Origin: a virus
Virus record (IMG/VR): IMGVR_UViG_3300045988_176929
DNA length: 54,964 nt
Direction: 5' to 3' (one strand)
Shown: positions 2,279 through 49,844 of the stretch, piece by piece
Layout: each line of letters opens with the position of its first letter
How positions within the stretch are numbered: position 1 is the first letter of the stretch
The notes under the pieces: model-generated
Told to the model about the DNA's origin: nothing
The model's input: the letters and a program-made list of their open reading frames with translations, nothing else
Databases searched by the model: none
Translations under genes and position numbers: made by a program

Positions 2279-2827
2279 ATGACTAACAAAACAGAATTAG
2301 TAAAGGTATTAAAGGAAAATGGGGCAACATGGAATAAGGAAGAAAAATCCTATCACATGAACGAATTATCTTTTAACAAAGTGATGGAAAACATTGAAGG
2401 AGTTGTTGCAATTAAATCAAAAACCGATAAAAATATGTACGGTTTAAAAATCAACAACATGGTTGTTACAAAGGTCATTACAGATGTTGTAGAAGTAAAT
2501 GAAACAACAGAACAAAAATCAACTGTTAAAAAGGAAGTTGAAGAAACAAAAAAACCTGTTAAAAAAGTTTCACGTGAAACATCGGAAACAAAAAAAGTTA
2601 AAAAGGAAAACGTTGAAGTTGGTAAGAATGGCCATAAGGCCAAAGGCTCCTCATACATTATTCTGTTAAAAAATAAGGATGATAAAAAGGAAACAAAGAA
2701 AACAGACTTGACAACGTGTGCAGAGGTAAAAGCATTTTTGAAAACAGTTTCAAAGAAACAACTTGAATATTTACGGATATATGATGAAAATAAAAATGAG
2801 GTTCGTAAAAGTGCATGGGTAGGTTGA
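2279..2827 (+). CDS. Lys/Glu-rich hypothetical protein
   Basis: 182-aa ORF with AAGGAGG RBS; carries one copy of the 14-bp palindrome. Confidence 0.65.
   Translation: MTNKTELVKVLKENGATWNKEEKSYHMNELSFNKVMENIEGVVAIKSKTDKNMYGLKINNMVVTKVITDVVEVNETTEQKSTVKKEVEETKKPVKKVSRETSETKKVKKENVEVGKNGHKAKGSSYIILLKNKDDKKETKKTDLTTCAEVKAFLKTVSKKQLEYLRIYDENKNEVRKSAWVG
2567..2580. promoter_or_regulatory. 14-bp perfect palindrome GTTTCACGTGAAAC, copy 1
   Basis: Exact self-complementary 14-mer. Confidence 0.9.
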
Positions 2828-3078: not shown

Positions 3079-3237
3079 ATGGGATGGGAATATATTTATA
3101 TTTTTAATTACTTTATTTTTATCAATAATTTTAACAATTTTGGTAGTTATGTGTACATAGTAAAAAAACTCGTACTTCTAACACTTAAAAATCCTCGTAC
3201 TTCTAACATTATGGAATTTTTGTGTGAAAAAATATAA
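3079..3237 (+). CDS. Doubtful small ORF overlapping repeat copies
   Basis: ATG after GGGGGT; contains two AAA(A/T)(C)CTCGTACTTCTAAC repeats, so it may be non-coding. Confidence 0.25.
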   Translation: MGWEYIYIFNYFIFINNFNNFGSYVYIVKKLVLLTLKNPRTSNIMEFLCEKI

Positions 3238-3280
3238 AACCCAACTTTTGACTATTATAAAATCCTCGTTATACAATTTA
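3163..3280 (+). repeat. Three more copies of the AAA(T)CCTCG(T)ACTTCTAAC-type motif
   Basis: AAAAACTCGTACTTCTAAC (3166), AAAATCCTCGTACTTCTAAC (3188), AAAATCCTCGTTATACAAT (3259). Confidence 0.8.
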
Positions 3281-3338
3281 CAATTATTGTAAAATTGTTA
3301 AATTGAGAAATTTGCATGAAATTAATAAAAAGCAAAAT

Positions 3339-3352
3339 GTTTCACGTGAAAC
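3339..3352. promoter_or_regulatory. 14-bp palindrome GTTTCACGTGAAAC, copy 2 (18-bp ATGTTTCACGTGAAACAT)
   Basis: Exact. Confidence 0.9.
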
Positions 3353-3715
3353 ATAAAATAGGGAAAGTTTTAATTATAACAGAATTATTAATTTCATTAT
3401 TTAAACATAAATGTTATTAAACAAAAATATAGTTTATAATTTTTGTGTTTAATAATTATAATAAATATATAATATTATATAAATAATAATATGTGTAATA
3501 TATAAGGAATGTATGTGTATATAATATATGTGTTTTTTATGTGTGTTTATATATTATTTATTGTGATTATTAAATGCAAAAATTTTTAAAATTTAAAATA
3601 ACAACAATTATGAAATGAAAAAATTAAATAACATATGAAATAAATAATATTTGTTATTTTTATTACAAAATTAAATTTCAACAATTATTTAATTATTTTT
3701 TATGCATTTTTAACA

Positions 3716-3743
3716 TTGTGTTTTTTAAAATATTTGATATAAT
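3716..3743 (+). promoter_or_regulatory. Candidate sigma-A promoter for the island genes
   Basis: TTGTGT, 16-nt spacer, TGaTATAAT. Confidence 0.45.
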
Positions 3744-3807
3744 TGCATCGTAACAATAAATCATATGAATGTTTCGCAAATACATTTAAAAAAATTGCAT
3801 AAATGTT

Positions 3808-4431
3808 ATGTATTCATTTGAAAAACGATATTATAATGATGAAAAATTACGTTTAATTGATGCATCGCAATTGAATAATGAAAATGACGAATATATTGTA
3901 TTATTTCAACGTGACGCATTACAAAATTTTATTGATTGTTATTGCAAATTTTATTTTACAATGAATGATGCATATGATGATTATATTAAATCATTTAAAA
4001 TAATGTGTAATGTGTTTGACAAACAAATTGTTATTAATGAATTTGAAAAAATATTTTCAAAATATGACGAAGATGTAAAAATAATTAATTGCATGTATTT
4101 TGATTATTTGAATACGGGTGATTATGCATTGTTTTTTGTTGTATATGAAAAACAAATGATTAATGAAATTAATACATTTGTTGATATTTATGAAATTGAT
4201 TATGATTTTTATGATTATGAAGAAGGTGATGAATTTCATTTTAAAATTAATGATTATGCATCATATTTGTTTTTCAATAAATATAATGCAATGCAATTTT
4301 TATTTGATTATAATAATGATTATGAAAAAATTGAAATTAAATCATCATATTATCACAATTTGTCAAAATATATAAATAATCATAATAAATATGTTTCAAA
4401 ATTTGAAAATGTTTCACGTGAAACATATTAA
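3808..4431 (+). CDS. Island paralog 1: acidic N/D/Y/F/I/K-rich protein with no Pro or Trp
   Basis: A 207-aa ORF in about 15% GC DNA is highly non-random; shares two blocks with paralog 2; no SD. Confidence 0.75.
   Translation: MYSFEKRYYNDEKLRLIDASQLNNENDEYIVLFQRDALQNFIDCYCKFYFTMNDAYDDYIKSFKIMCNVFDKQIVINEFEKIFSKYDEDVKIINCMYFDYLNTGDYALFFVVYEKQMINEINTFVDIYEIDYDFYDYEEGDEFHFKINDYASYLFFNKYNAMQFLFDYNNDYEKIEIKSSYYHNLSKYINNHNKYVSKFENVSRETY
4261..4319 (+). repeat. 59-bp perfect direct repeat, copy A
   Basis: Identical to 4992..5050; encodes SYLFFNKYNAMQFLFDYNN. Confidence 0.9.
4411..4424. promoter_or_regulatory. 14-bp palindrome, copy 3
   Basis: Exact; overlaps the last codons of paralog 1. Confidence 0.9.
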
Positions 4432-4493
4432 TAACAAAATTAACAATGATTGTAACGTGAATGCAAACGTTTAATAAAAATGCATAAAATAAT

Positions 4494-5078
4494 ATGTATC
4501 ATTTTATTGATGAAAATAATTGTTATGATAAAATTAAAATTGTTGACGAAAACGAAAAAATTGATGAAATGTTTTGTAACAAAACGAATGAACAAATTGT
4601 AATTTTTAATTTTGATGCATTACAACAATTTATTGATTGTTTTTATGAAAACGAATTTCAAAAATTTTTTGATTGTGATAAAAATGATTTCATTATTGAA
4701 TTTAATGATTTTAATTTTAAATTTTGTAAAAAAATGAAAAATTATGATAAAAAACGAATCGAAAAAAAATTTTACAAAATAAAATCAATATATGATGATT
4801 GTAACGTGATTAAATGTGTATTTTTTAACAATTGTTGTCATATATCATCATATTTACATTTGCATATAATTTATTGTAAAAATGATGATAAAAATATTTT
4901 TATTGATGATTATATAATAATGTATAACGTCGATAAATTTAAAATTAAACATGATGCAAAACGAACATTCAATTCACAAAATGATGCATTATCATATTTG
5001 TTTTTCAATAAATATAATGCAATGCAATTTTTATTTGATTATAATAATGAAATTGATAAAAAACAAATTTTATATTGA
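4494..5078 (+). CDS. Island paralog 2 (no Gly, Pro or Trp)
   Basis: 194-aa ORF; DALQQFIDCFY and SYLFFNKYNAMQFLFDYNN blocks shared with paralog 1. Confidence 0.75.
   Translation: MYHFIDENNCYDKIKIVDENEKIDEMFCNKTNEQIVIFNFDALQQFIDCFYENEFQKFFDCDKNDFIIEFNDFNFKFCKKMKNYDKKRIEKKFYKIKSIYDDCNVIKCVFFNNCCHISSYLHLHIIYCKNDDKNIFIDDYIIMYNVDKFKIKHDAKRTFNSQNDALSYLFFNKYNAMQFLFDYNNEIDKKQILY
4992..5050 (+). repeat. 59-bp perfect direct repeat, copy B
   Basis: Identical to 4261..4319. Confidence 0.9.
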
Positions 5079-5163
5079 TGATTTTGATTTTTCGATTGAT
5101 TATGACACATATAAAACAATTTTCGCATGATTCACAATTCATGTAAAACAATTGTAAAATGTT

Positions 5164-5496
5164 ATGTTTGAAATGAATAATAAAAATGTAATTGTAACAC
5201 GTTATAATGATGAAATGAAACAATATTTTAAAAACATTGTTGATGATATTTATTGTGATGATGTATCATATAATACAATGTGCAACGAAAATATTGATGC
5301 ATTTTTTAAAAATAATGCATATATGCATTATGAATATACATTAATTAAAAATGATGATATTTTACATATTATTGTTTTTAATAACAATGAATTTAAAATT
5401 GTTTCATATAAAATAAATGATGATTTTGAATTTATACGTTTTAATGTTTCATATGTTTATAATGTATATGATTTATTTTCAATAATTTTTAATTAA
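5164..5496 (+). CDS. Island paralog 3 (no Gly, Pro or Trp)
   Basis: 110-aa ORF preceded by TTGTAAAATGTT directly abutting the ATG. Confidence 0.65.
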   Translation: MFEMNNKNVIVTRYNDEMKQYFKNIVDDIYCDDVSYNTMCNENIDAFFKNNAYMHYEYTLIKNDDILHIIVFNNNEFKIVSYKINDDFEFIRFNVSYVYNVYDLFSIIFN

Positions 5497-5499
5497 TAT

Positions 5500-5513
5500 G
5501 TTTCACGTGAAAC
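5500..5513. promoter_or_regulatory. 14-bp palindrome, copy 4
   Basis: Exact; 4 nt after the stop of paralog 3. Confidence 0.9.
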
Positions 5514-5568
5514 AATGTAACAAATAATAATGTTGTGTGTTCGCAAATCACAAAAATTGCAAAATATT

Positions 5569-5986
5569 ATGAAAATTAATTATGTTGTAAAAAAATTTGA
5601 ATGTATCGAAATTTACAAAAATATTGATGATTTTTTTTAAAATGCAATTTGAATGTTTATTTGATGATATTAATTGTATTTTTAATTTATCATATGATAT
5701 TAAACAAATAAAATTATCATATTGTAAAATGAAATGCGAATTGAAAAAAAATAATATTAAAAATTATGTTATTATTTGTGATTTTGAACATGAAAAATTT
5801 TATTTGATTGACAAACAAAATGACAATTTTATAACAAATAATATAACAAATAAAATGTATCAATTTAATTTTGATTTTGAAAATGTCGAAAATAATAAAT
5901 TATATGAAATTGACGATACATCAAAATTAAATATTGCAATGTATTATTTATATGAAATTTGTCATTGTAATGATGAACAAATATAA
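5569..5986 (+). CDS. Island paralog 4, interrupted by a +1 frame change in a T8 run (5631-5638)
   Basis: The ATG at 5569 has the family start motif TTGCAAAATATT but stops at 5638-5640. The long ORF (5597..5986) lies in the next frame. One T fewer would fuse them. Confidence 0.5.
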
Positions 5987-6051
5987 TTTTTAAAAATGTA
6001 AACAAAATATTAATTGTCAACAATTGCACGTTGTAAAATTGCATAAATATC

Positions 6052-6414
6052 ATGTTGAATAAAAAAATTATTGAAAAATTCAAAAATTTTGAAAATGATG
6101 TGAACGATTATGATTTATTTGAATTTTACACATTTGATGAATTTTTGAAAATATTTGAAAATGTTAATGATGAATATAAAATTTCATATTATGAAAAAAC
6201 ACAAAAATTGATAAATGAATATCATTGTAATAATGACAATACAATCGTATTATTGTATAATTGCGATGATGACGAATATTTAATAATCAATTTTGAAAAT
6301 GATAATTTGATTATTACGCAAAATATTGAAATTGAATATACAAATGATGATTTATGCAAAAATGCATTATATGAAATTTTACAATATATGTTTACAAATG
6401 AATATTATGATTGA
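6052..6414 (+). CDS. Island paralog 5 (no Gly, Pro or Trp)
   Basis: 120-aa ORF preceded by TTGCATAAATATC directly before the ATG. Confidence 0.65.
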   Translation: MLNKKIIEKFKNFENDVNDYDLFEFYTFDEFLKIFENVNDEYKISYYEKTQKLINEYHCNNDNTIVLLYNCDDDEYLIINFENDNLIITQNIEIEYTNDDLCKNALYEILQYMFTNEYYD

Positions 6415-6524
6415 TTGTTAACGAAAACAATTAAAAAAATTCGTATTACAAAATGATATTTTCAATATTTGTGTTTTTTGCATTTTACATTATTTTGTTT
6501 TATTTATTTGATTAATTAAATGAA

Positions 6525-6654
6525 TGTGATTTTTACACAAAAATTCGATTTACGAAAAAATCGTAATAAAACAAAATTCATTATACGTGTAAAAAATTCG
6601 ATATACACAATAAATATAAAATCGTCGTTTTACAAATTATGTGTAAAAATCACA
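6525..6654. repeat. 15-bp inverted repeat pair TGTGATTTTTACACA / TGTGTAAAAATCACA
   Basis: 6525-6539 and 6640-6654 are exact reverse complements. Confidence 0.85.
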
Positions 6655-6734
6655 TTTCATCGTAATACACATTATGTAAAAAATAACGTATAATTAAAAA
6701 TGCGAAATATTAAAAAATACGTGTAAAATAAAAA

Positions 6735-6797
6735 TTTACATACAATGTAAAAAATTAATGTGTAAAAAATTACATTAAAAAATACATTGTATGTAAA
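6735..6797. repeat. Nested hairpin: 15-bp inverted repeat TTTACATACAATGTA / TACATTGTATGTAAA with an inner TTAATGT/ACATTAA pair
   Basis: 6735-6749 and 6783-6797 are exact reverse complements. Confidence 0.85.
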
Positions 6798-7033
6798 ATA
6801 ATGTGTATAATAAATCATATGATAATTAATTAAATATATGTAATGATAATTACAATGTACATATTAATTGATATGATAAAACAATTATGAATACAAAACA
6901 TAATGAATTATTTATAACAACATTTGAATGTAATAATTATAATTACAAAACAACATTATAAATTATTGATTACAAATTACATTGTCAACGTCATTAAAAT
7001 AATTATTTTTATATTCGTATATATGCGTAAATT

Positions 7034-7047
7034 GTTTCACGTGAAAC
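7034..7047. promoter_or_regulatory. 14-bp palindrome, copy 5, flanked by direct repeats TATTCGTATATATGC
   Basis: Exact. Confidence 0.9.
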
Positions 7048-7167
7048 ATTGCAAAATAATTTATTCGTATATATGCATATAATAACAATTGTTTTTAAAA
7101 TCATGTGTTATTATCATGCAATTAAATAACAACATATATCATTGTTTATTTTTGTGCAATTTTTATA

Positions 7168-7195
7168 TTGCAATTATTTGTGTATGCGTTATAAT
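7168..7195 (+). promoter_or_regulatory. Candidate sigma-A promoter for paralog 6
   Basis: TTGCAA, 16-nt spacer, TATAAT. Confidence 0.45.
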
Positions 7196-7262
7196 GTAAT
7201 TACAAAATAAATAATGATTGTGTGATTCGACACAACACACGTTAATCAAATGTCAAAATGTT

Positions 7263-7553
7263 ATGATAAACAATAATATAAATGTACAAACAAAATATTT
7301 CATTACAAAAAATGATATTTACAAATTATGTGTTGAAAATGATTTTTGTACATGTTGCGACAATGAACAGTATGACGAATTATTATCATCAAATTTATTG
7401 TATGTATGTAATAATATTGATGATTTAAAACGACATTTATTAATTGTTGCAAATGATATATATAAATATTCGTGTGATACAAATATTGAAAATATATTAT
7501 ATTTATTATTTAATAAATGTGTACATACATTATTTAAAATAAATAATAAATAA
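7263..7553 (+). CDS. Island paralog 6 (no Gly, Pro or Trp)
   Basis: ATG preceded by TGTCAAAATGTT as in the other paralogs. The ORF-track start at 7218 is a TTG further upstream. Confidence 0.6.
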   Translation: MINNNINVQTKYFITKNDIYKLCVENDFCTCCDNEQYDELLSSNLLYVCNNIDDLKRHLLIVANDIYKYSCDTNIENILYLLFNKCVHTLFKINNK

Positions 7554-7584
7554 TTAAATATTTACAATTAAATAAATGTAAATT

Positions 7585-7615
7585 ATGCACGTTGAAAAAT
7601 AACGTGCATTTTTTA
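7585..7615 (+). terminator. Rho-independent terminator closing the island
   Basis: ATGCACGTT / AACGTGCAT stem, 7-nt loop, then a T6 run. Confidence 0.85.
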
Positions 7616-7670
7616 TGTTTAATTAAATAACAAATGTTATTATAACAAATGTAATTTAATCATTTTAAAA

Positions 7671-7684
7671 ATAACGATCGTTAT
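7671..7684. repeat. 14-bp perfect palindrome ATAACGATCGTTAT at the island's right boundary
   Basis: Exact; 7 nt before the first GG at 7691. Confidence 0.85.
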
Positions 7685-7851
7685 AATAACGGGTGGTTTG
7701 TTTTGTTGTGTCATTTTGAAAATAGACCGTCTAACTCCTAGAAATCCTACTTTCATATATATATAAGGCCCTCAGCTCCATTCGAGGATATGCCTGAGGA
7801 TGCGTAGGAGCCTCAAATAGACGTCTGAATGATGATCGTTGCCTATTTATT

Positions 7852-7903
7852 CATGTTCGTTTGCAACGTTCCTGTATGAGGCAAATACGACGTTGCAACA
7901 TGA
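7852..7903 (+). promoter_or_regulatory. Hairpin with conserved loop TGTATGAGGCAAATACG in the terS leader
   Basis: Stem TTGCAACGT (7861-7869) / ACGTTGCAA (7890-7898), plus outer CATGT/ACATG. Confidence 0.6.
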
Positions 7904-8030
7904 CATAAAAAATGCAAAAATAAAGCCAAAAACTAAAAAGTGAGAAAAGTGTTATAAAAATATTTCTCTAGCAGAAATTGAAAGCCTATAAGGCCCCACG
8001 TTATTACATAAAGGAAGGAGGATTAAATAA

Positions 8031-32714: not shown

Positions 32715-32785
32715 AGGTATATAGCTTAGTGGTAGAAGCAAACAATTTAATTGTTAAGTCACAGGTTCGATTCCTGTTATATCTA
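32715..32785 (+). tRNA. tRNA with a short anticodon arm; best 7-nt loop reading gives anticodon UUA (ochre-suppressor-like)
   Basis: Acceptor AGGTATA/TATATCT; D arm GCTT-AGTGGTAG-AAGC; T arm ACAGG-TTCGATT-CCTGT. The anticodon arm AACAA-TTTAA-TTGTT folds as 5 bp with a 5-nt loop, or 4 bp with loop ATTTAAT. Confidence 0.75.
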
Positions 32786-36524: not shown

Positions 36525-37169
36525 ATGAATATTACTCATGCGGTTGAAGAAAAAATTGAAGGTGACAAGTTAGAAGCAATATTTGAAAGACAAAAAAGTT
36601 TAATGTTTAAGTACCATGATATTGAAAAGAAAAGTGGTTTACTACAAACAGAAGATTGTCCTGTTAATCTTGATGATAAAAGAGGCCAGGCAAGAATTAA
36701 GGATTTCTCATGGAGGGTAATGGAAGAAGTTGGGGAAGCACTTGATGCAAGAGAAGATGGGGACCGGGAACATTTTTGTGAAGAATTGATTGATGGTTTA
36801 CATTTTCTTACTGAATTAACAATTCTTGCAGGATATGAACCGAAAGATATTTGTTGGGAAGAACCGAATCAGATGGATATGCTTGATTACATGGTTATGA
36901 ATGTTGAGGATGTTATGGAGTGTATTAATATTAGCAATTATGTTGCAAACTTAGTAATGGATTTGGGTATGATGTGTAACTGCTTGAAGAATAAACCATG
37001 GAAGCAGACAAACATGATTACCGATAAGGAACATTTCCACAATAAACTTTGTTGTGTTTGGAATGATTACATTCATCTTTTAAGTACAGAAATGAACGCA
37101 AATGAAATTGCAATGGTTTACTTAAAGAAGTCACAGGTAAATAAGTTTAGACAGAGGTCGGGATATTGA
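36525..37169 (+). CDS. All-alpha NTP pyrophosphohydrolase (MazG / dimeric dUTPase-like)
   Basis: EEVGEALDA and EELIDGLHFL acidic helices, plus NKPWKQ. Confidence 0.5.
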   Translation: MNITHAVEEKIEGDKLEAIFERQKSLMFKYHDIEKKSGLLQTEDCPVNLDDKRGQARIKDFSWRVMEEVGEALDAREDGDREHFCEELIDGLHFLTELTILAGYEPKDICWEEPNQMDMLDYMVMNVEDVMECINISNYVANLVMDLGMMCNCLKNKPWKQTNMITDKEHFHNKLCCVWNDYIHLLSTEMNANEIAMVYLKKSQVNKFRQRSGY

Positions 37170-37930: not shown

Positions 37931-38656
37931 ATGAGAATCTATATGAACTGGGCGGAAGCATACGAGGAGATTAAAAGGGATCTTGCTGAAATGGGTATTC
38001 TTGTAAAACCTAAAACGATGCAGGATAAGGTTGTAGAAGGAAACCCTGATTATGAAACAATGGAGTTGCAGAATTATTGCTATACAATTCTTAATGCAAA
38101 ATCCAAAGATATTACTGGGGTAATTCAACCTTGGGCTGATGCAGAATTTATGGAAAGAATTTGCAATCCGTTTGCATCAAAAGAATTTACAGGCTGTCTT
38201 GATAAACCCGAATTTATTAATCCTGGGGAAGCATGGAAGTTAAGAAAAGATGTCTGGACTGAGTATATGCATGATGGTAAAATGGCTTATACTTACAATG
38301 AAAGAATCTGGCGTAATGAACAGCTTACAAAAATTATTGAAAGATTAAAGCAGGACCATGATTCAAGACAGTTATGGTTGAGTATCTGGGATCCTAATGA
38401 GGATGTTGATAAGCTAGGTGGTGTTTCCCGTGTTCCTTGTTCATTAGGTTATAATTTCCAATTCAGGGATGGTAAACTTAACATTCACTATGTTATGCGT
38501 AGCTGTGATTTCAATACACACTTTATTAATGATGTGTACTTAGGAATTAAACTTTTGGAATATGTTGCTGATAAATGTGGAATGGAAGTAGGTAATTTCA
38601 CCCATACAATGTTCTCCTTGCACGTTTATAAAAAAGACGTTGCAAATGTGTTTTAA
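37931..38656 (+). CDS. Thymidylate synthase-like pyrimidine C5 transferase (ThyA family, C-terminally short)
   Basis: DSRQLWLSIWDP...VPCSLGYNFQFRDGKLNIHYVMRSCDFNTHFINDVY...FSLHVY parallels ThyA DSRR..WN..PCH..QF..QRSCD..PFN..THLY. Confidence 0.7.
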   Translation: MRIYMNWAEAYEEIKRDLAEMGILVKPKTMQDKVVEGNPDYETMELQNYCYTILNAKSKDITGVIQPWADAEFMERICNPFASKEFTGCLDKPEFINPGEAWKLRKDVWTEYMHDGKMAYTYNERIWRNEQLTKIIERLKQDHDSRQLWLSIWDPNEDVDKLGGVSRVPCSLGYNFQFRDGKLNIHYVMRSCDFNTHFINDVYLGIKLLEYVADKCGMEVGNFTHTMFSLHVYKKDVANVF

Positions 38657-44476: not shown

Positions 44477-44669
44477 AAGATATTCTATATATAATGTTGC
44501 ACCAACTAATTTTTCAGCTATTTTTATAGAGTGTAAGCCACAACAAATATGGGGATATGTAAAGTTTGAGGATAAGGTAGATTTGATTAGGGACAATGTT
44601 AGTATGTATATTTCAATATCTGATTTTGAAGAAAATTGGGAGGTTATTGATGATGGAAAGAATGAGTAA
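44436..44669 (+). CDS. Hypothetical protein
   Basis: In-frame ATG within ORF 44385..44669. Confidence 0.4.
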   Translation: MSMRRVVKTKCRIKRYSIYNVAPTNFSAIFIECKPQQIWGYVKFEDKVDLIRDNVSMYISISDFEENWEVIDDGKNE

Positions 44670-45138
44670 GAAGGATTATTATTTAGGTATTGCATTAGCT
44701 GTTTCAAAACGATCCCCATGTTTAAGAAGACGTTATGGTTGTATCATTGTAAAGAATGATGAGATAATTGCAACTGGGTATAATGGATCCCCTAGAGGTG
44801 AGTTAAATTGTTGTGATTGCTATGAGGAATGTCCAAGAAAAGATAAGCCACATAATTCTGGGGATTATTCAGATTGCACATCAGTTCATGCTGAACAAAA
44901 TGCTATGTTATCAGCTGCAAGGAAAGATATGATTGGTGCAACAATGTATTTGGTAGCAGAAGAGGTTTATTTCAATCTTAAGGAGGTTCATTTATGGGGT
45001 AAACTTAAGGGTATAAAACCATGCCCTATTTGTGAACGTATGATAAAGAATGCAGGAATAGAAAGAATAATAACAGTAGAAGGAATTATTTGGAAAAAAA
45101 GAAATCTTGAAAAGGTGGTTAAAAATGGTTGGTTATAA
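44650..45138 (+). CDS. dCMP deaminase (ComEB-like)
   Basis: ATG after GGGAGG; VHAEQNA and PCPICERMI zinc motifs. Confidence 0.85.
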   Translation: MMERMSKKDYYLGIALAVSKRSPCLRRRYGCIIVKNDEIIATGYNGSPRGELNCCDCYEECPRKDKPHNSGDYSDCTSVHAEQNAMLSAARKDMIGATMYLVAEEVYFNLKEVHLWGKLKGIKPCPICERMIKNAGIERIITVEGIIWKKRNLEKVVKNGWL

Positions 45139-48457: not shown

Positions 48458-48636
48458 TGGGTAAGAAAATATATGACTGGGTTAAATTAAAACCTGAAAT
48501 CATGGATCTTGTTAATCAAGGTAAATCAATACATGACATTCTAGACTACATTGCTGAAAAATACCAAAAATATCCTGAACCTGCTTTTATATCCAAGAAA
48601 ATAAGAATATGGAAAAAGGAGGAACAGAATGGCTAA
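48457..48636 (+). CDS. Small HTH-like protein (59 aa)
   Basis: ATG after AAGGAGGA; TAATG coupling; below the ORF-track cutoff. Confidence 0.5.
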   Translation: MGKKIYDWVKLKPEIMDLVNQGKSIHDILDYIAEKYQKYPEPAFISKKIRIWKKEEQNG

Positions 48637-48853
48637 ATCTTCATACCATGTTTGTTACCATTGCAAAGACAGAACCGTTGGTTGTCATGCTTCCTGTAAA
48701 TTATATCAGGATGAAAAGAAAGAACGTGATAAACAAAGGGAGCAAATAACAAATGAAAACATTATAGGTTCTACAATTCATAACTTACAAAAAGAACGTT
48801 ATTACAACCGTAACAATCGACAACGTAAAGTATACAAAACACATAAACGTTAA
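48629..48853 (+). CDS. Cys/His-rich small protein
   Basis: HVCYHCKDRTVGCHASC. Confidence 0.5.
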   Translation: MAKSSYHVCYHCKDRTVGCHASCKLYQDEKKERDKQREQITNENIIGSTIHNLQKERYYNRNNRQRKVYKTHKR

Positions 48854-48862
48854 CATACCTCT

Positions 48863-48888
48863 GAGGCATCGTCTGATGCCTCTATTTT
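48863..48888 (+). terminator. Rho-independent terminator
   Basis: GAGGCATC-GTCT-GATGCCTC, then TATTTT. Confidence 0.8.
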
Positions 48889-48931
48889 CGAGTTTAACAT
48901 TCCCATTGACACATTATTCCATAATGATCCC

Positions 48932-48961
48932 AAACCGTCTGTATGGTCAAAATACGACGTT
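48932..48961 (+). promoter_or_regulatory. Motif AAACCGTCTGTATGGTCAAAATACGACGTT (member of the conserved intergenic family)
   Basis: Shares AAACCGTCT.TATG..CAAATACG with 32393-32420, and AAATACGACGTT with 7883-7894. Confidence 0.55.
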
Positions 48962-48987
48962 ATAATCACATCATGTTTTACACCCTG

Positions 48988-49016
48988 TTGACAAAATAAA
49001 TAAAAAGTATTAATAT
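48988..49016 (+). promoter_or_regulatory. Sigma-A-like promoter
   Basis: TTGACA, 17-nt spacer, TAATAT. Confidence 0.5.
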
Positions 49017-49054
49017 TTAATCAAAACAAACACTTTTAGGAGGTAAAATCAATA

Positions 49055-49270
49055 ATGAACCATATTATTAGTTATTTGAAATTAGCAAATTTAAAATGTT
49101 ATGAAACATTCTTTACTTTAACAAAAGAAGATCAACAATTTGTTGCAGAACTTGCTTCACAAACAATTTATAGTTGTGAACAAATTGCAAAATGTTATTT
49201 AGACAATAAAAAAGATAAAAATAAAACAAAAACGGAGGTTTTAAAATATAATGTCAAACTTTTTAATTGA
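49055..49270 (+). CDS. Hypothetical protein
   Basis: 71 aa, AGGAGGT RBS. Confidence 0.5.
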   Translation: MNHIISYLKLANLKCYETFFTLTKEDQQFVAELASQTIYSCEQIAKCYLDNKKDKNKTKTEVLKYNVKLFN

Positions 49271-49463
49271 ATATGAAGAAATAGAACAATGTATTAAGGA
49301 TTTGGTTATTAAAAACAATATGGAAGAAGAATTTAACAAATTATCAATAACTCAAAAACTATTCATATATTATTATTTTTACAATACAACAGAATTTAAA
49401 CAGTATTTAGCTGTTTATAAAATTAAAAAGTTTATTTTAAATTTTGCCAAAATATTTAAATAA
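49251..49463 (+). CDS. Hypothetical protein
   Basis: 70 aa. Confidence 0.45.
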   Translation: MSNFLIEYEEIEQCIKDLVIKNNMEEEFNKLSITQKLFIYYYFYNTTEFKQYLAVYKIKKFILNFAKIFK

Positions 49464-49469
49464 ACCCTA

Positions 49470-49498
49470 TTGACATTTATTTTTATTTGTGGTATAAT
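49470..49498 (+). promoter_or_regulatory. Sigma-A-like promoter
   Basis: TTGACA, 17-nt spacer, TGgTATAAT. Confidence 0.6.
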
Positions 49499-49625
49499 AA
49501 TAACATAATTAAATAATAAATTATTTAATAATGTTATATATAATATTATATATTAATCTATTGTTTAATTATATAAATAACATTACTGTTAAAATATTTT
49601 TGTAAGAAAGGTAAAAGGTAAAAAA

Positions 49626-49844
49626 ATGAAAAAGAAAACAAAATTTAAAAAAGACATTATGGTTGTTTTACATAATGTATTACAAAATCAAATTTTTATT
49701 ATGAGTGTATTAAGTAATTCTAAAGAATTTGAAAATCAGAAAGGAGTATTATCTGAAGGTATTGTTAGTACAAATGATACAATCAAAATTAATATTGCTC
49801 CTTGGTTAAATTATGAAACAGAATGGGGTAAGAATGATGATTGA
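49626..49844 (+). CDS. Hypothetical protein
   Basis: 72 aa. Confidence 0.45.
   Translation: MKKKTKFKKDIMVVLHNVLQNQIFIMSVLSNSKEFENQKGVLSEGIVSTNDTIKINIAPWLNYETEWGKNDD

Follow-up and report, generated by a model that had tools for sequence, protein, structure and literature searches.

An island of small acidic orphan genes nearly free of AG, GG, CT and CC beside the terminase genes of a Firmicutes siphophage

Dinucleotide composition of the island

The IMG/VR virus record IMGVR_UViG_3300045988_176929, analysed here over its full 54,964 nucleotides (nt; hereafter the window), carries between its early/middle genes and the terminase gene terS an island of only 17-19% guanine plus cytosine (GC), in which six small open reading frames (ORFs), o1 to o6, follow one another on the plus strand (Table 1). 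A previous reading of the same letters (the original prediction) had taken these ORFs for six tandem paralogs encoding acidic proteins with essentially no Gly, Pro or Trp. We find that the island as a whole, on both strands, is nearly free of four of the 16 dinucleotides, namely AG, GG, CT and CC (RG and CY, where R stands for purine and Y for pyrimidine). Between positions 3270 and 7690 there are 17 of these dinucleotides against about 390 expected from base composition (4% of expectation); the exceptions are few and cluster in the 5' leader, and none of the 17 is CT or CC. The observed/expected ratios recorded for the island are 0.06 for AG, 0.03 for CT, 0.12 for GG and 0.14 for CC, and CG, TG and CA stand about two-fold above expectation. 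An uninterrupted run free of all four extends over 3,144 nt (4225-7369; log10 P about -127), whereas the remaining 50 kb contains 152 of them per kb, with a longest gap of 73 nt. The rule is strand-symmetric (the set is closed under reverse complementation and amounts to purine-G on either strand) and independent of reading frame. It is obeyed by a 438-nt leader and an 850-nt non-coding gap just as it is by the ORFs, and is therefore a property of the nucleic acid rather than of the proteins.

AT pressure alone does not account for this pattern: an AT-rich control region at 48500-49800 (about 21% GC, few ORFs) has a normal content of the four dinucleotides, and the choice among Arg, Ser, Leu, Thr and Ala codons in the island speaks against it as well. 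Arg, for example, is written only as CGA or CGT in the island, whereas AGA dominates elsewhere in the genome, so that AT pressure cannot by itself be the cause. General avoidance of restriction sites was likewise rejected, TGCA, ACGT and ATGCAT being abundant in the island. The control region at 48500-49800 also shows a local dip in GC skew and may be a replication origin.

When the genetic code is enumerated, Gly, Pro and Trp, and no other amino acids, turn out to have no codon permitted by the rule. Their scarcity thus follows from exclusion at the DNA level, which takes in non-coding DNA too, and is not the protein trait for which it had been taken. Also excluded are AGR, AGY, CTN, AAG, GAG, CAG and TAG, and 862 of the 865 island codons comply, the exceptions being two GGT codons in o1 and a single CAG. 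Ser is encoded by TCA/TCG, Leu by TTA/TTG, Lys by AAA, Glu by GAA and Gln by CAA, and TAG never occurs. Since a codon beginning with G can only come after one that ends in T or C, NNT codons are favoured (Asn, Asp, Tyr, Phe, Ile, Cys), and the resemblance from one ORF to another stems from this common restricted vocabulary.

A rule-obeying island occupies the same location in related contigs (L001-L006, L049-L051 and L177-L180), and no relative with the o5 family is without the rule, whose domain invariably adjoins the conserved block in front of terS. The longest run without the four dinucleotides measures 4,073 nt (L001), exceptions being somewhat more frequent in L049, L050 and L180; the rule was seen independently in JGI, ENA and Logan assemblies. 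The exclusion is robust and replicated. It was not found in 40 more distant terS loci or in Dulem virus 36, a relative with 84% TerL identity has no such island, and none of 120 unrelated viral contigs bearing parS sites (see below) contains a dinucleotide-free island, their longest run being 71 nt. Searches of GenBank phages with the island (blastn) and with o5 (tblastn) returned no match, and our literature searches yielded no description of a multi-kb coding module written without four dinucleotides. Selection must maintain the rule, given sharp borders that are shared by lineages whose proteins have diverged by 50%, ORFs that stay open, and codon families that are switched and not lost.

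Proteins encoded in the island

The six ORFs (15.6-19.3% GC) are real proteins. With a stop probability of 0.10 per codon on the plus strand of the island, 0.016 open runs of at least 96 codons would be expected there, and six are observed, all on that strand. The prior argument that stop codons should be dense in such DNA is thus sound, but the case is less extreme than it had seemed, dinucleotide shuffles reaching about 91 codons over six frames (mainly on the minus strand, which has fewer stops). The positions and compositions first read from the sequence also hold for the most part: o1 has two Gly, and the other five contain no Gly, Pro or Trp. The start and frame of o4 needed correction. 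As sequenced, o4 spans 5597-5986 (129 amino acids (aa) from a TTG), but its true start is the ATG at 5569, which is preceded by a conserved upstream box; a run of T (T8, 5631-5638) has one T too many and shifts the frame, the L001 ortholog, with T7, being intact at 139 aa. Sequencing error, a pseudogene or slippage-prone phase variation would each explain this frameshift.

Homology is confined to o1 and o2 (35% identity over 188 aa, E = 5e-18 in BLASTP; 98.9% probability in hhalign). Composition-corrected BLASTP and all-against-all hhalign of ortholog profiles related no other pair among the six ORF families, all of which stayed below 4% probability. By these comparisons the island holds at least five unrelated orphan families, with o1/o2 as the only paralogs, and the claim of six tandem paralogs fails. 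The related C-terminal helices proposed for the other ORFs were rejected as homology, being compositional look-alikes devoid of profile similarity. The motifs common to o1 and o2 are genuine, with one reservation: the SYLFFNKYNAMQFLFDYNN block belongs to 58 nt over which the DNA of the two genes is identical (within 4249-4338 and 4980-5069), a tract that reflects recent recombination and not deep conservation. o2 is itself chimeric, residues 1-170 being of o2 type and the last 24 aa, which make up this shared block, deriving from an o1-type 3' end. The remnant that follows its stop codon belongs to a seventh family, f7, intact in L001 (11299-11691) and L002 (10990-11376).

Orthologs of all six ORFs are kept open at 53-98% amino-acid identity, and the open frames are conserved in at least 10 related phage contigs of about 55 kb, which bears out the proposal that they are under selection. 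Besides itself, o1 has 9 homologs (37-89% identity) and o5 has 34 (50-98%), all of them unannotated and from metagenome assemblies; a profile search of 1.84 billion representative proteins retrieved 7 members of the o1/o2 family and no others. The contigs carrying these genes (52-58 kb) are syntenic phages. Gene content of the island is mosaic among them, f7, f8 and others coming and going, whereas o5 is the constant member nearest terS and occurs in every island-bearing contig examined that covers its position. Ratios of non-synonymous to synonymous substitution (dN/dS, NG86) range from 0.2 to 0.6 for o1, o2 and o5, with larger values for o3 and o4, and all of them are inflated because the rule itself restricts synonymous change; in an alignment of 35 o5 sequences, conservation is residue-specific. 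The island ORFs are thus fast-evolving, and their families are shuffled mosaically among related phages.

The predominance of N, D, Y, F, I, K, E and C and the net acidity of the products had been recognised correctly, with charges from -3 to -18. Acidity goes beyond composition: relative to a rule-aware null built from the dinucleotide frequencies of the island's own non-coding DNA, Asp and Glu are 3-7 times in excess and most other residues are near expectation, and the net charge is -6.5 per 100 aa against an expected +7 to +11. Such an excess marks acidity as a genuine protein-level signal. It is unevenly distributed, o2, o4 and o6 being weakly acidic (net -3 to -4), and Asp plus Glu make up 18-22% of residues.

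AlphaFold produced confident models for o5 (predicted local distance difference test (pLDDT) 84, predicted template modelling score (pTM) 0.80) and o1 (pLDDT 73, pTM 0.73), both of them alpha/beta with a four-stranded meander and a C-terminal helix. Foldseek comparison, which the original prediction had suggested as a check, found no fold match for either, whether to the DNA mimics Ocr and ArdA or to any other protein: searches of the o1 model against PDB and of the o5 model against PDB and BFVD returned nothing with E < 0.09. That no known family could be recognised was also confirmed, as profile searches of PDB sequences gave no match, and Pfam and PHROG scans of the six ORFs and eight further island families gave nothing significant. 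No nuclease motifs were found in the island proteins. The status of the ORFs as real proteins follows from the ORF statistics, the orthologs kept open, dN/dS, the residue conservation of o5, the confident models and the Asp/Glu enrichment taken together. All in all, the initial observation was largely correct; the claim of six paralogs and the protein-level explanation of the missing residues were wrong.

Borders, start signals, parS sites and genomic setting

Table 1. Features in and around the island, by position in the window
Feature	Position	Strand	Remarks
parS core GTTTCACGTGAAAC	2567..2580		15/16 of the full site; in gene 2279-2827, left of the island
Sigma-70-like promoter, TTGACT-18-TACAAT	3248..3277	+	consensus scan; conserved in L001-L003
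RG/CY-free island	3270..7690	both	AG/GG/CT/CC nearly absent; 17-19% GC
parS 1 TGTTTCACGTGAAACA	3338..3353		leader, about 55 nt downstream of the promoter -10
o1	3808..4431	+	207 aa, net -17; two Gly, the island's only Gly codons; founding member of the o1/o2 family
parS 2	4410..4425		within the final o1 codons (NVSRETY*)
o2	4494..5078	+	194 aa; paralog of o1; chimera
f7 remnant	5044..5130	+	out-of-frame C-terminus of a seventh island family, after the o2 stop
o3	5164..5496	+	110 aa, net -8; separate orphan family
parS 3	5499..5514		directly after the o3 stop; position conserved in L001
o4	5569..5986	+	about 138 aa if one T is removed; separate orphan family
Start-proximal box AAAATTGCATAAATATC	6034..6051	+	o5 example, at the Shine-Dalgarno position
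Equivalents of the box, o1-o4 and o6	end at 3807, 4493, 5163, 5568, 7262	+	
o5	6052..6414	+	120 aa, net -18; core island gene
parS 4	7033..7048		long non-coding gap upstream of o6
o6	7263..7553	+	96 aa, Cys-rich, net -3; separate orphan family
Predicted intrinsic terminator	7585..7619	+	10-bp stem ATGCACGTTG/AACGTGCAT, then a T-run; conserved in all relatives
Conserved non-coding block	7691..8030	+	normal composition, between the island and terS
terS	8031	+	
terL	8883	+	

Transcription of the island is probably driven by the promoter at its left border, and the strong predicted terminator after o6 would close the transcription unit. The dinucleotide-free stretch begins at 3266, inside the promoter, and ends about 80 nt beyond the terminator, where a conserved junction of ATAAC with GGG leads into DNA of normal composition. 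This DNA is the conserved non-coding block in front of terS, for which a cos/pac site, a late promoter and a structured RNA are candidate functions. Its core at 7724-7790 (GGACC..TCCTAGAAATCCTAsTTTCATATATATATAAGGCCCTC) is invariant even where the flanks of relatives differ, and has no match in Rfam.

Other repeated motifs were noted in the same region. A direct repeat, CTCGTACTTCTAACA, lies directly left of the promoter (3169-3183 and 3194-3208) and is conserved in L001 and L003. Within the 850-nt non-coding gap, GTGTAAAA occurs five times, in both orientations, over 237 nt (6531-6767), an arrangement reminiscent of iterons or operators. The Spo0A-box heptamer TGTCGAA, which is not enriched window-wide, is found only twice in the 55-kb window, both times in the island (5884-5890 on the plus strand and 7226-7232 on the minus strand); one of the two, which relatives conserve, lies 31-37 nt before the start of o6.

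With neither GG nor AG permitted, a Shine-Dalgarno (SD) sequence of the GGAGG type is impossible. SD-like sequences (5-12 nt before the start) precede none of the six island genes, as against 32 of the 41 other genes of the phage. In their place each island ATG is preceded by a conserved AAAAATTGCAWAAAT box, for which 31 island genes from 8 phages give the consensus AAAAATTGCA(T/A)AAAT-N3-ATG, and a further TTGCA/TCGCA box is found 15-21 nt upstream. Two explanations of these boxes and of SD-independent initiation found no support: the spacing of the box does not suit a sigma-70 -10 element for leaderless mRNAs, the ATG standing 3 nt after the best hexamer, and the start regions are not unusually unstructured, their folding energies being equal to those of the other genes.

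The island and its left flank further contain sites of the parS type, defined here as 16-bp palindromes matching tGTTNCACGTGAAACa. The 14-bp core palindrome GTTTCACGTGAAAC is present in five copies between 2567 and 7047 and nowhere else in the window; four of the five are perfect copies of the 16-mer TGTTTCACGTGAAACA, which is identical to the chromosomal parS consensus of Firmicutes (PMC4488948). By chance, 0.14 occurrences would be expected window-wide (core, with at most 2 mismatches) and 1e-5 for the 16-mer in the island (order-1 Markov model). The positions are conserved in L001-L004, L050, L177 and L178, o1 homologs with as little as 37% identity still terminate in NVSRETY or NVSRETL, and the leftmost core is conserved in the L002 and L003 orthologs. 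The gene carrying that core encodes a 182-aa protein in which the core falls within a Lys-rich linker (KKVSRETSE); its orthologs are widespread in the phage group, and the protein has no Pfam or PHROG match. Canonical 16-bp parS sites occur in at least 120 IMG/VR viral contigs (e.g. L061, L075, L076, L078 and L116), several of which have 3-5 clustered copies, so that this part of the locus is not new in kind. The "ParB" of Dulem virus 36 consists of a ParB_N domain only, and that virus has neither a parS site nor an island. In virulent phage phi29, five parS sites enable Spo0J of the host to entrap the phage genome in spores (PMC2731898). By analogy, the most economical reading of the sites described here is that host ParB/Spo0J would be recruited as in phi29, or that ParB would modulate transcription of the island.

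The assembly is circular and complete at about 54.85 kb, its ends overlapping by 119 nt. The genome is siphophage-like, with about 31% GC and every gene on the plus strand, and its source is a virulent-type Firmicutes siphophage of about 55 kb. The nearest GenBank relatives of its TerL belong to Clostridium phages, Bacillus phages and a lemur-gut virus (48-58% identity). No integrase, ParA or ParB turned up in the phage proteins that were scanned. In some relatives, a gene for a tyrosine recombinase (Phage_integrase) lies between the lysis genes and the portal gene (L049, 19111-20135, where it is split into two ORFs; L051, 9669-10694). The o5 profile had no match in GTDB genomes or in JGI metagenome contigs, and a terL scan yielded only two phage contigs binned into metagenome-assembled genomes (MAGs). 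Two genes have a sporulation flavour, one for a SleB-type cell-wall hydrolase and one for a SpoIIID-like regulator. At 32715-32785 on the plus strand, ARAGORN called a tRNA gene whose anticodon is UUA (ochre/UAA suppressor), which Rfam confirmed (59 bits); the structural and replication genes appear intact under the standard code.

Replication and nucleotide metabolism are represented by a DnaG-like primase, Pol III alpha, RecA, RNase H, an all-alpha dUTPase/dCTPase-like protein (36525-37169), a ThyA-like protein (37931-38656) and a dCMP deaminase (44596-45138). With such a set of dUTPase, ThyA and dCMP deaminase genes, T4 and SPO1 make hydroxymethyl-pyrimidine DNA, and the DNA of the present phage may likewise contain a modified base. 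Outside 3200-7700, five 6-bp palindromes are markedly rarer than expected (observed/expected: GAATTC 1/19, TGATCA 0/17, TCATGA 0/12, GATATC 3/15 and GTTAAC 7/21), all five being built only from dinucleotides that the island permits. This is classical restriction-site avoidance and, being genome-wide, indicates that the phage DNA is exposed to defences that read sequence.

Possible causes of the exclusion and comparison with known systems

The reading that we favour, at a probability of about 0.45, is that the island is a hypervariable early module, probably the first to be injected, whose DNA has been selected to escape a host nuclease reading RG/CY and to which host ParB is recruited. The ORFs lie directly upstream of the conserved block and terS, and we infer from this position that they would mark the end packaged last and injected first in a cos-type phage, that is, an early "leading" region beside the probable packaging site. 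Island DNA would have been selected to be free of the recognition element of a host nucleic-acid-targeting defence. Candidate readers are NGG/NAG- or CC-type protospacer adjacent motifs (PAMs) of CRISPR (clusters of regularly interspaced short palindromic repeats) systems, or short-motif nucleases; a reader acting at the level of double-stranded DNA fits the strand symmetry best. This first segment, otherwise unprotected, could then be expressed, and its small acidic products might act as putative host-takeover or anti-defence factors for the remaining genome, following the logic of first-step transfer (FST) in T5; an early anti-defence role of the island proteins is plausible. The four or five parS sites would recruit host ParB/Spo0J for entrapment in spores, and ParB may also modulate transcription of the island. 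Precedents exist for several of these elements. Sensitivity to EcoRI and CRISPR maps to the FST DNA of T5 (10.1101/866236), Type I restriction-modification motifs in the first-injected region decide the sensitivity of Autographiviridae (PMC12455610), PAM depletion by selection is documented in phages (PMC4246573), and SpyCas9 recognises NGG and, less well, NAG (PMC7439565).

Several observations weigh against this reading. The assembly is circular, and the placement of the island as first-injected derives solely from its adjacency to terS. We know of no single defence that reads AG and GG equally; for Cas9, NGG is preferred to NAG. The island still abounds in T-rich PAMs (Cas12a, type I-C) and in many palindromic sites (TGCA, ACGT). 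As some close relatives lack the island altogether, it is dispensable. The limits of the rule nearly match a single transcription unit, so that a cause at the RNA level would fit too, ordinary folding of the start regions leaves SD-less initiation unexplained, and the MAG bins point only to Lachnospiraceae or Bacilli as the host. A bolder formulation is that the island is "stealth DNA", in which an immune nuclease reading purine-G on either strand, by selection on the segment of the phage exposed first, drove the near-complete loss of four of the 16 dinucleotides and thereby produced the first dinucleotide-level immune-evasion code in a bacteriophage; we advance it tentatively, judging the odds to be against it. 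Such a nuclease could be a CRISPR effector dependent on NRG- or CC-type PAMs or a dinucleotide-level restriction activity.

Among the alternatives, a constraint on the transcript is unlikely, although we would abandon it last. It holds that the mRNA must avoid AG/GG and CU/CC, either for SD-independent translation when the SD route is shut off or for escape from an RNase or regulator, and it gains from the near coincidence of the rule with one transcription unit, from the common conserved box at the SD position of island genes that all lack an SD, and from the clustering of exceptions in the 5' leader. An mRNA-level cause does not predict that CT/CC should be excluded at least as strictly as AG/GG, as is the case, and the rule begins upstream of the likely transcription start and continues past the terminator; nor do we know of an RNase or RNA-binding protein with such specificity. 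Strand symmetry and independence of coding are what a double-stranded DNA-reading enzyme would produce, and that enzyme might be the phage's own: an early dinucleotide nuclease, made or activated by the phage, would destroy host DNA at RG/CY, and the early module would have to be without sites until the genome is protected or the nuclease is off. T4 EndoIV, which cuts at dC, offers a parallel, and the ThyA-like, dUTPase/dCTPase-like and dCMP deaminase proteins could modify, and so protect, newly made phage DNA. Davison has proposed a precedent in the A1 protein and FST DNA of T5 (10.1101/866236). This explanation is improbable, and we place it behind the transcript-level one: no candidate nuclease was found, the island proteins being devoid of Gly/Pro and of nuclease motifs, uniformly modified virion DNA would make sequence avoidance needless, and the normal RG/CY content and restriction-site avoidance of the remaining genome argue against blanket base modification.

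The original interpretation, in which six paralogous proteins intrinsically without Gly, Pro and Trp act as DNA-mimic anti-restriction proteins of the Ocr/ArdA kind, has become very improbable. The strong acidity of o1 and o5 (-17 and -18), beyond compositional expectation, agrees with it, as do genes that are conserved, fast-evolving and mosaic, like many anti-defence genes, and their location beside the packaging genes. It is contradicted by homology limited to o1-o2, by the weak charges of o2, o4 and o6, by the lack of any Pfam, PHROG or PDB sequence match or Foldseek match (o1 and o5 models), and by non-coding DNA that follows the same rule and makes the missing residues a DNA-level by-product; to guess at DNA mimicry is reasonable only for o1 and o5. 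Even less credence can be given to escape from a xenogeneic silencer or another host protein that binds AT-rich DNA via CT/AG motifs. Bacillus Rok, for instance, is said to prefer AACTA/TACTA. The island is the most AT-rich DNA of the genome, hence a prime target for silencing, and exclusion of AG/CT does remove such motifs, but the equally strict and much costlier exclusion of GG/CC, with its loss of three amino acids and the SD, is left unexplained. We consider least probable of all a mutational artefact without selection, in which a context-specific deaminase or hypermutation converted C to T at CY and G to A at RG. Saturation with such a mutagen would indeed leave AT-rich DNA whose C residues are confined to CA/CG and whose G residues are confined to TG/CG. 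Sharp borders common to lineages 50% diverged in protein, ORFs that have stayed open and whose products conserve residues and are foldable, a switch of Arg and Ser to CGN/TCR codons in place of their loss, and the retention of perfect GC-containing parS sites and boxes all speak against it, and we know of no deaminase with a 3'-pyrimidine context.

Provided that selection is responsible for it, the exclusion surpasses every other case of motif avoidance known to us in a phage, comprising four whole dinucleotides within a defined module, and it suggests an activity specific for purine-G, either a defence of the host or a weapon of the phage. The predicted models would be those of natural proteins that fold without Gly, Pro or Trp, and the start boxes would represent a start signal of natural origin that works without an SD, in a phage that otherwise relies on strong SDs; should evasion of a purine-G-reading immune nuclease be the cause, its cost would be real proteins in a 17-amino-acid alphabet together with this new signal (the ATTGCA box). 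Long runs free of a reverse-complement-symmetric set of dinucleotides offer a searchable signature for leading or anti-defence regions in uncultured phages, and the parS/Spo0J strategy of phi29 would extend to another group of virulent-type phages. For annotation, the island is a warning that DNA-level rules can impose a composition resembling that of paralogs.

Known systems resemble the island in part. With Ocr and ArdA it shares small acidic early-type proteins without enzymatic motifs (o1 -17, o5 -18); there is, however, no similarity in sequence or fold, the o1 and o5 models being alpha/beta and not the helical bundle of Ocr, the Asp plus Glu content of 18-22% is lower than in classical mimics, and four of the six proteins are mildly acidic. 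The host-takeover module of SPO1 is likewise a cluster of many small orphan genes with their own promoters in a virulent Firmicutes phage, and the nucleotide genes of the present phage are T4/SPO1-like. The SPO1 genes, in contrast, have strong SDs and normal composition, and location in a terminal redundancy would be conjectural for the island. Closest for the parS sites is phi29, a virulent Firmicutes phage without its own ParB and with about five chromosomal-type sites for host Spo0J (PMC2731898). The present phage has 4 perfect 16-mers and 1 core, plus sporulation-flavoured genes, but its sites are clustered in one 4.5-kb module, whereas those of phi29 lie near both genome ends.

As in restriction-site and PAM avoidance and in the CpG suppression of vertebrate viruses, short motifs read by host immunity are under-represented (PMC4246573), and the suppression of CpG against ZAP would be analogous to evasion of a purine-G-reading nuclease. 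Avoidance known from phages is genome-wide, partial and directed at specific 3-6-mers, whereas here it is local, near-absolute (4%) and at the level of dinucleotides. The leading regions of T5 (FST) and Autographiviridae provide the fullest comparison. They differ in that avoidance concerns one 4-8-bp site and not four whole dinucleotides at the expense of three amino acids and the SD; moreover, the island genes have no homology to T5 genes, and two-step injection, terminal repeats and early timing are conjectural for the island. The likenesses are a discrete block by a genome end or probable packaging site, which must itself be without host-nuclease targets, the presumed targets being nearly absent from the block and present elsewhere (AG/GG/CT/CC at 4% of expectation in the island and normal outside it). 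T5 FST, finally, parallels the island in its clustered sites for a host chromosome protein (DnaA boxes in T5, parS here) and in its small early proteins, mostly of unassigned function, that serve host takeover and protection of the remaining genome, the role proposed for the island products.

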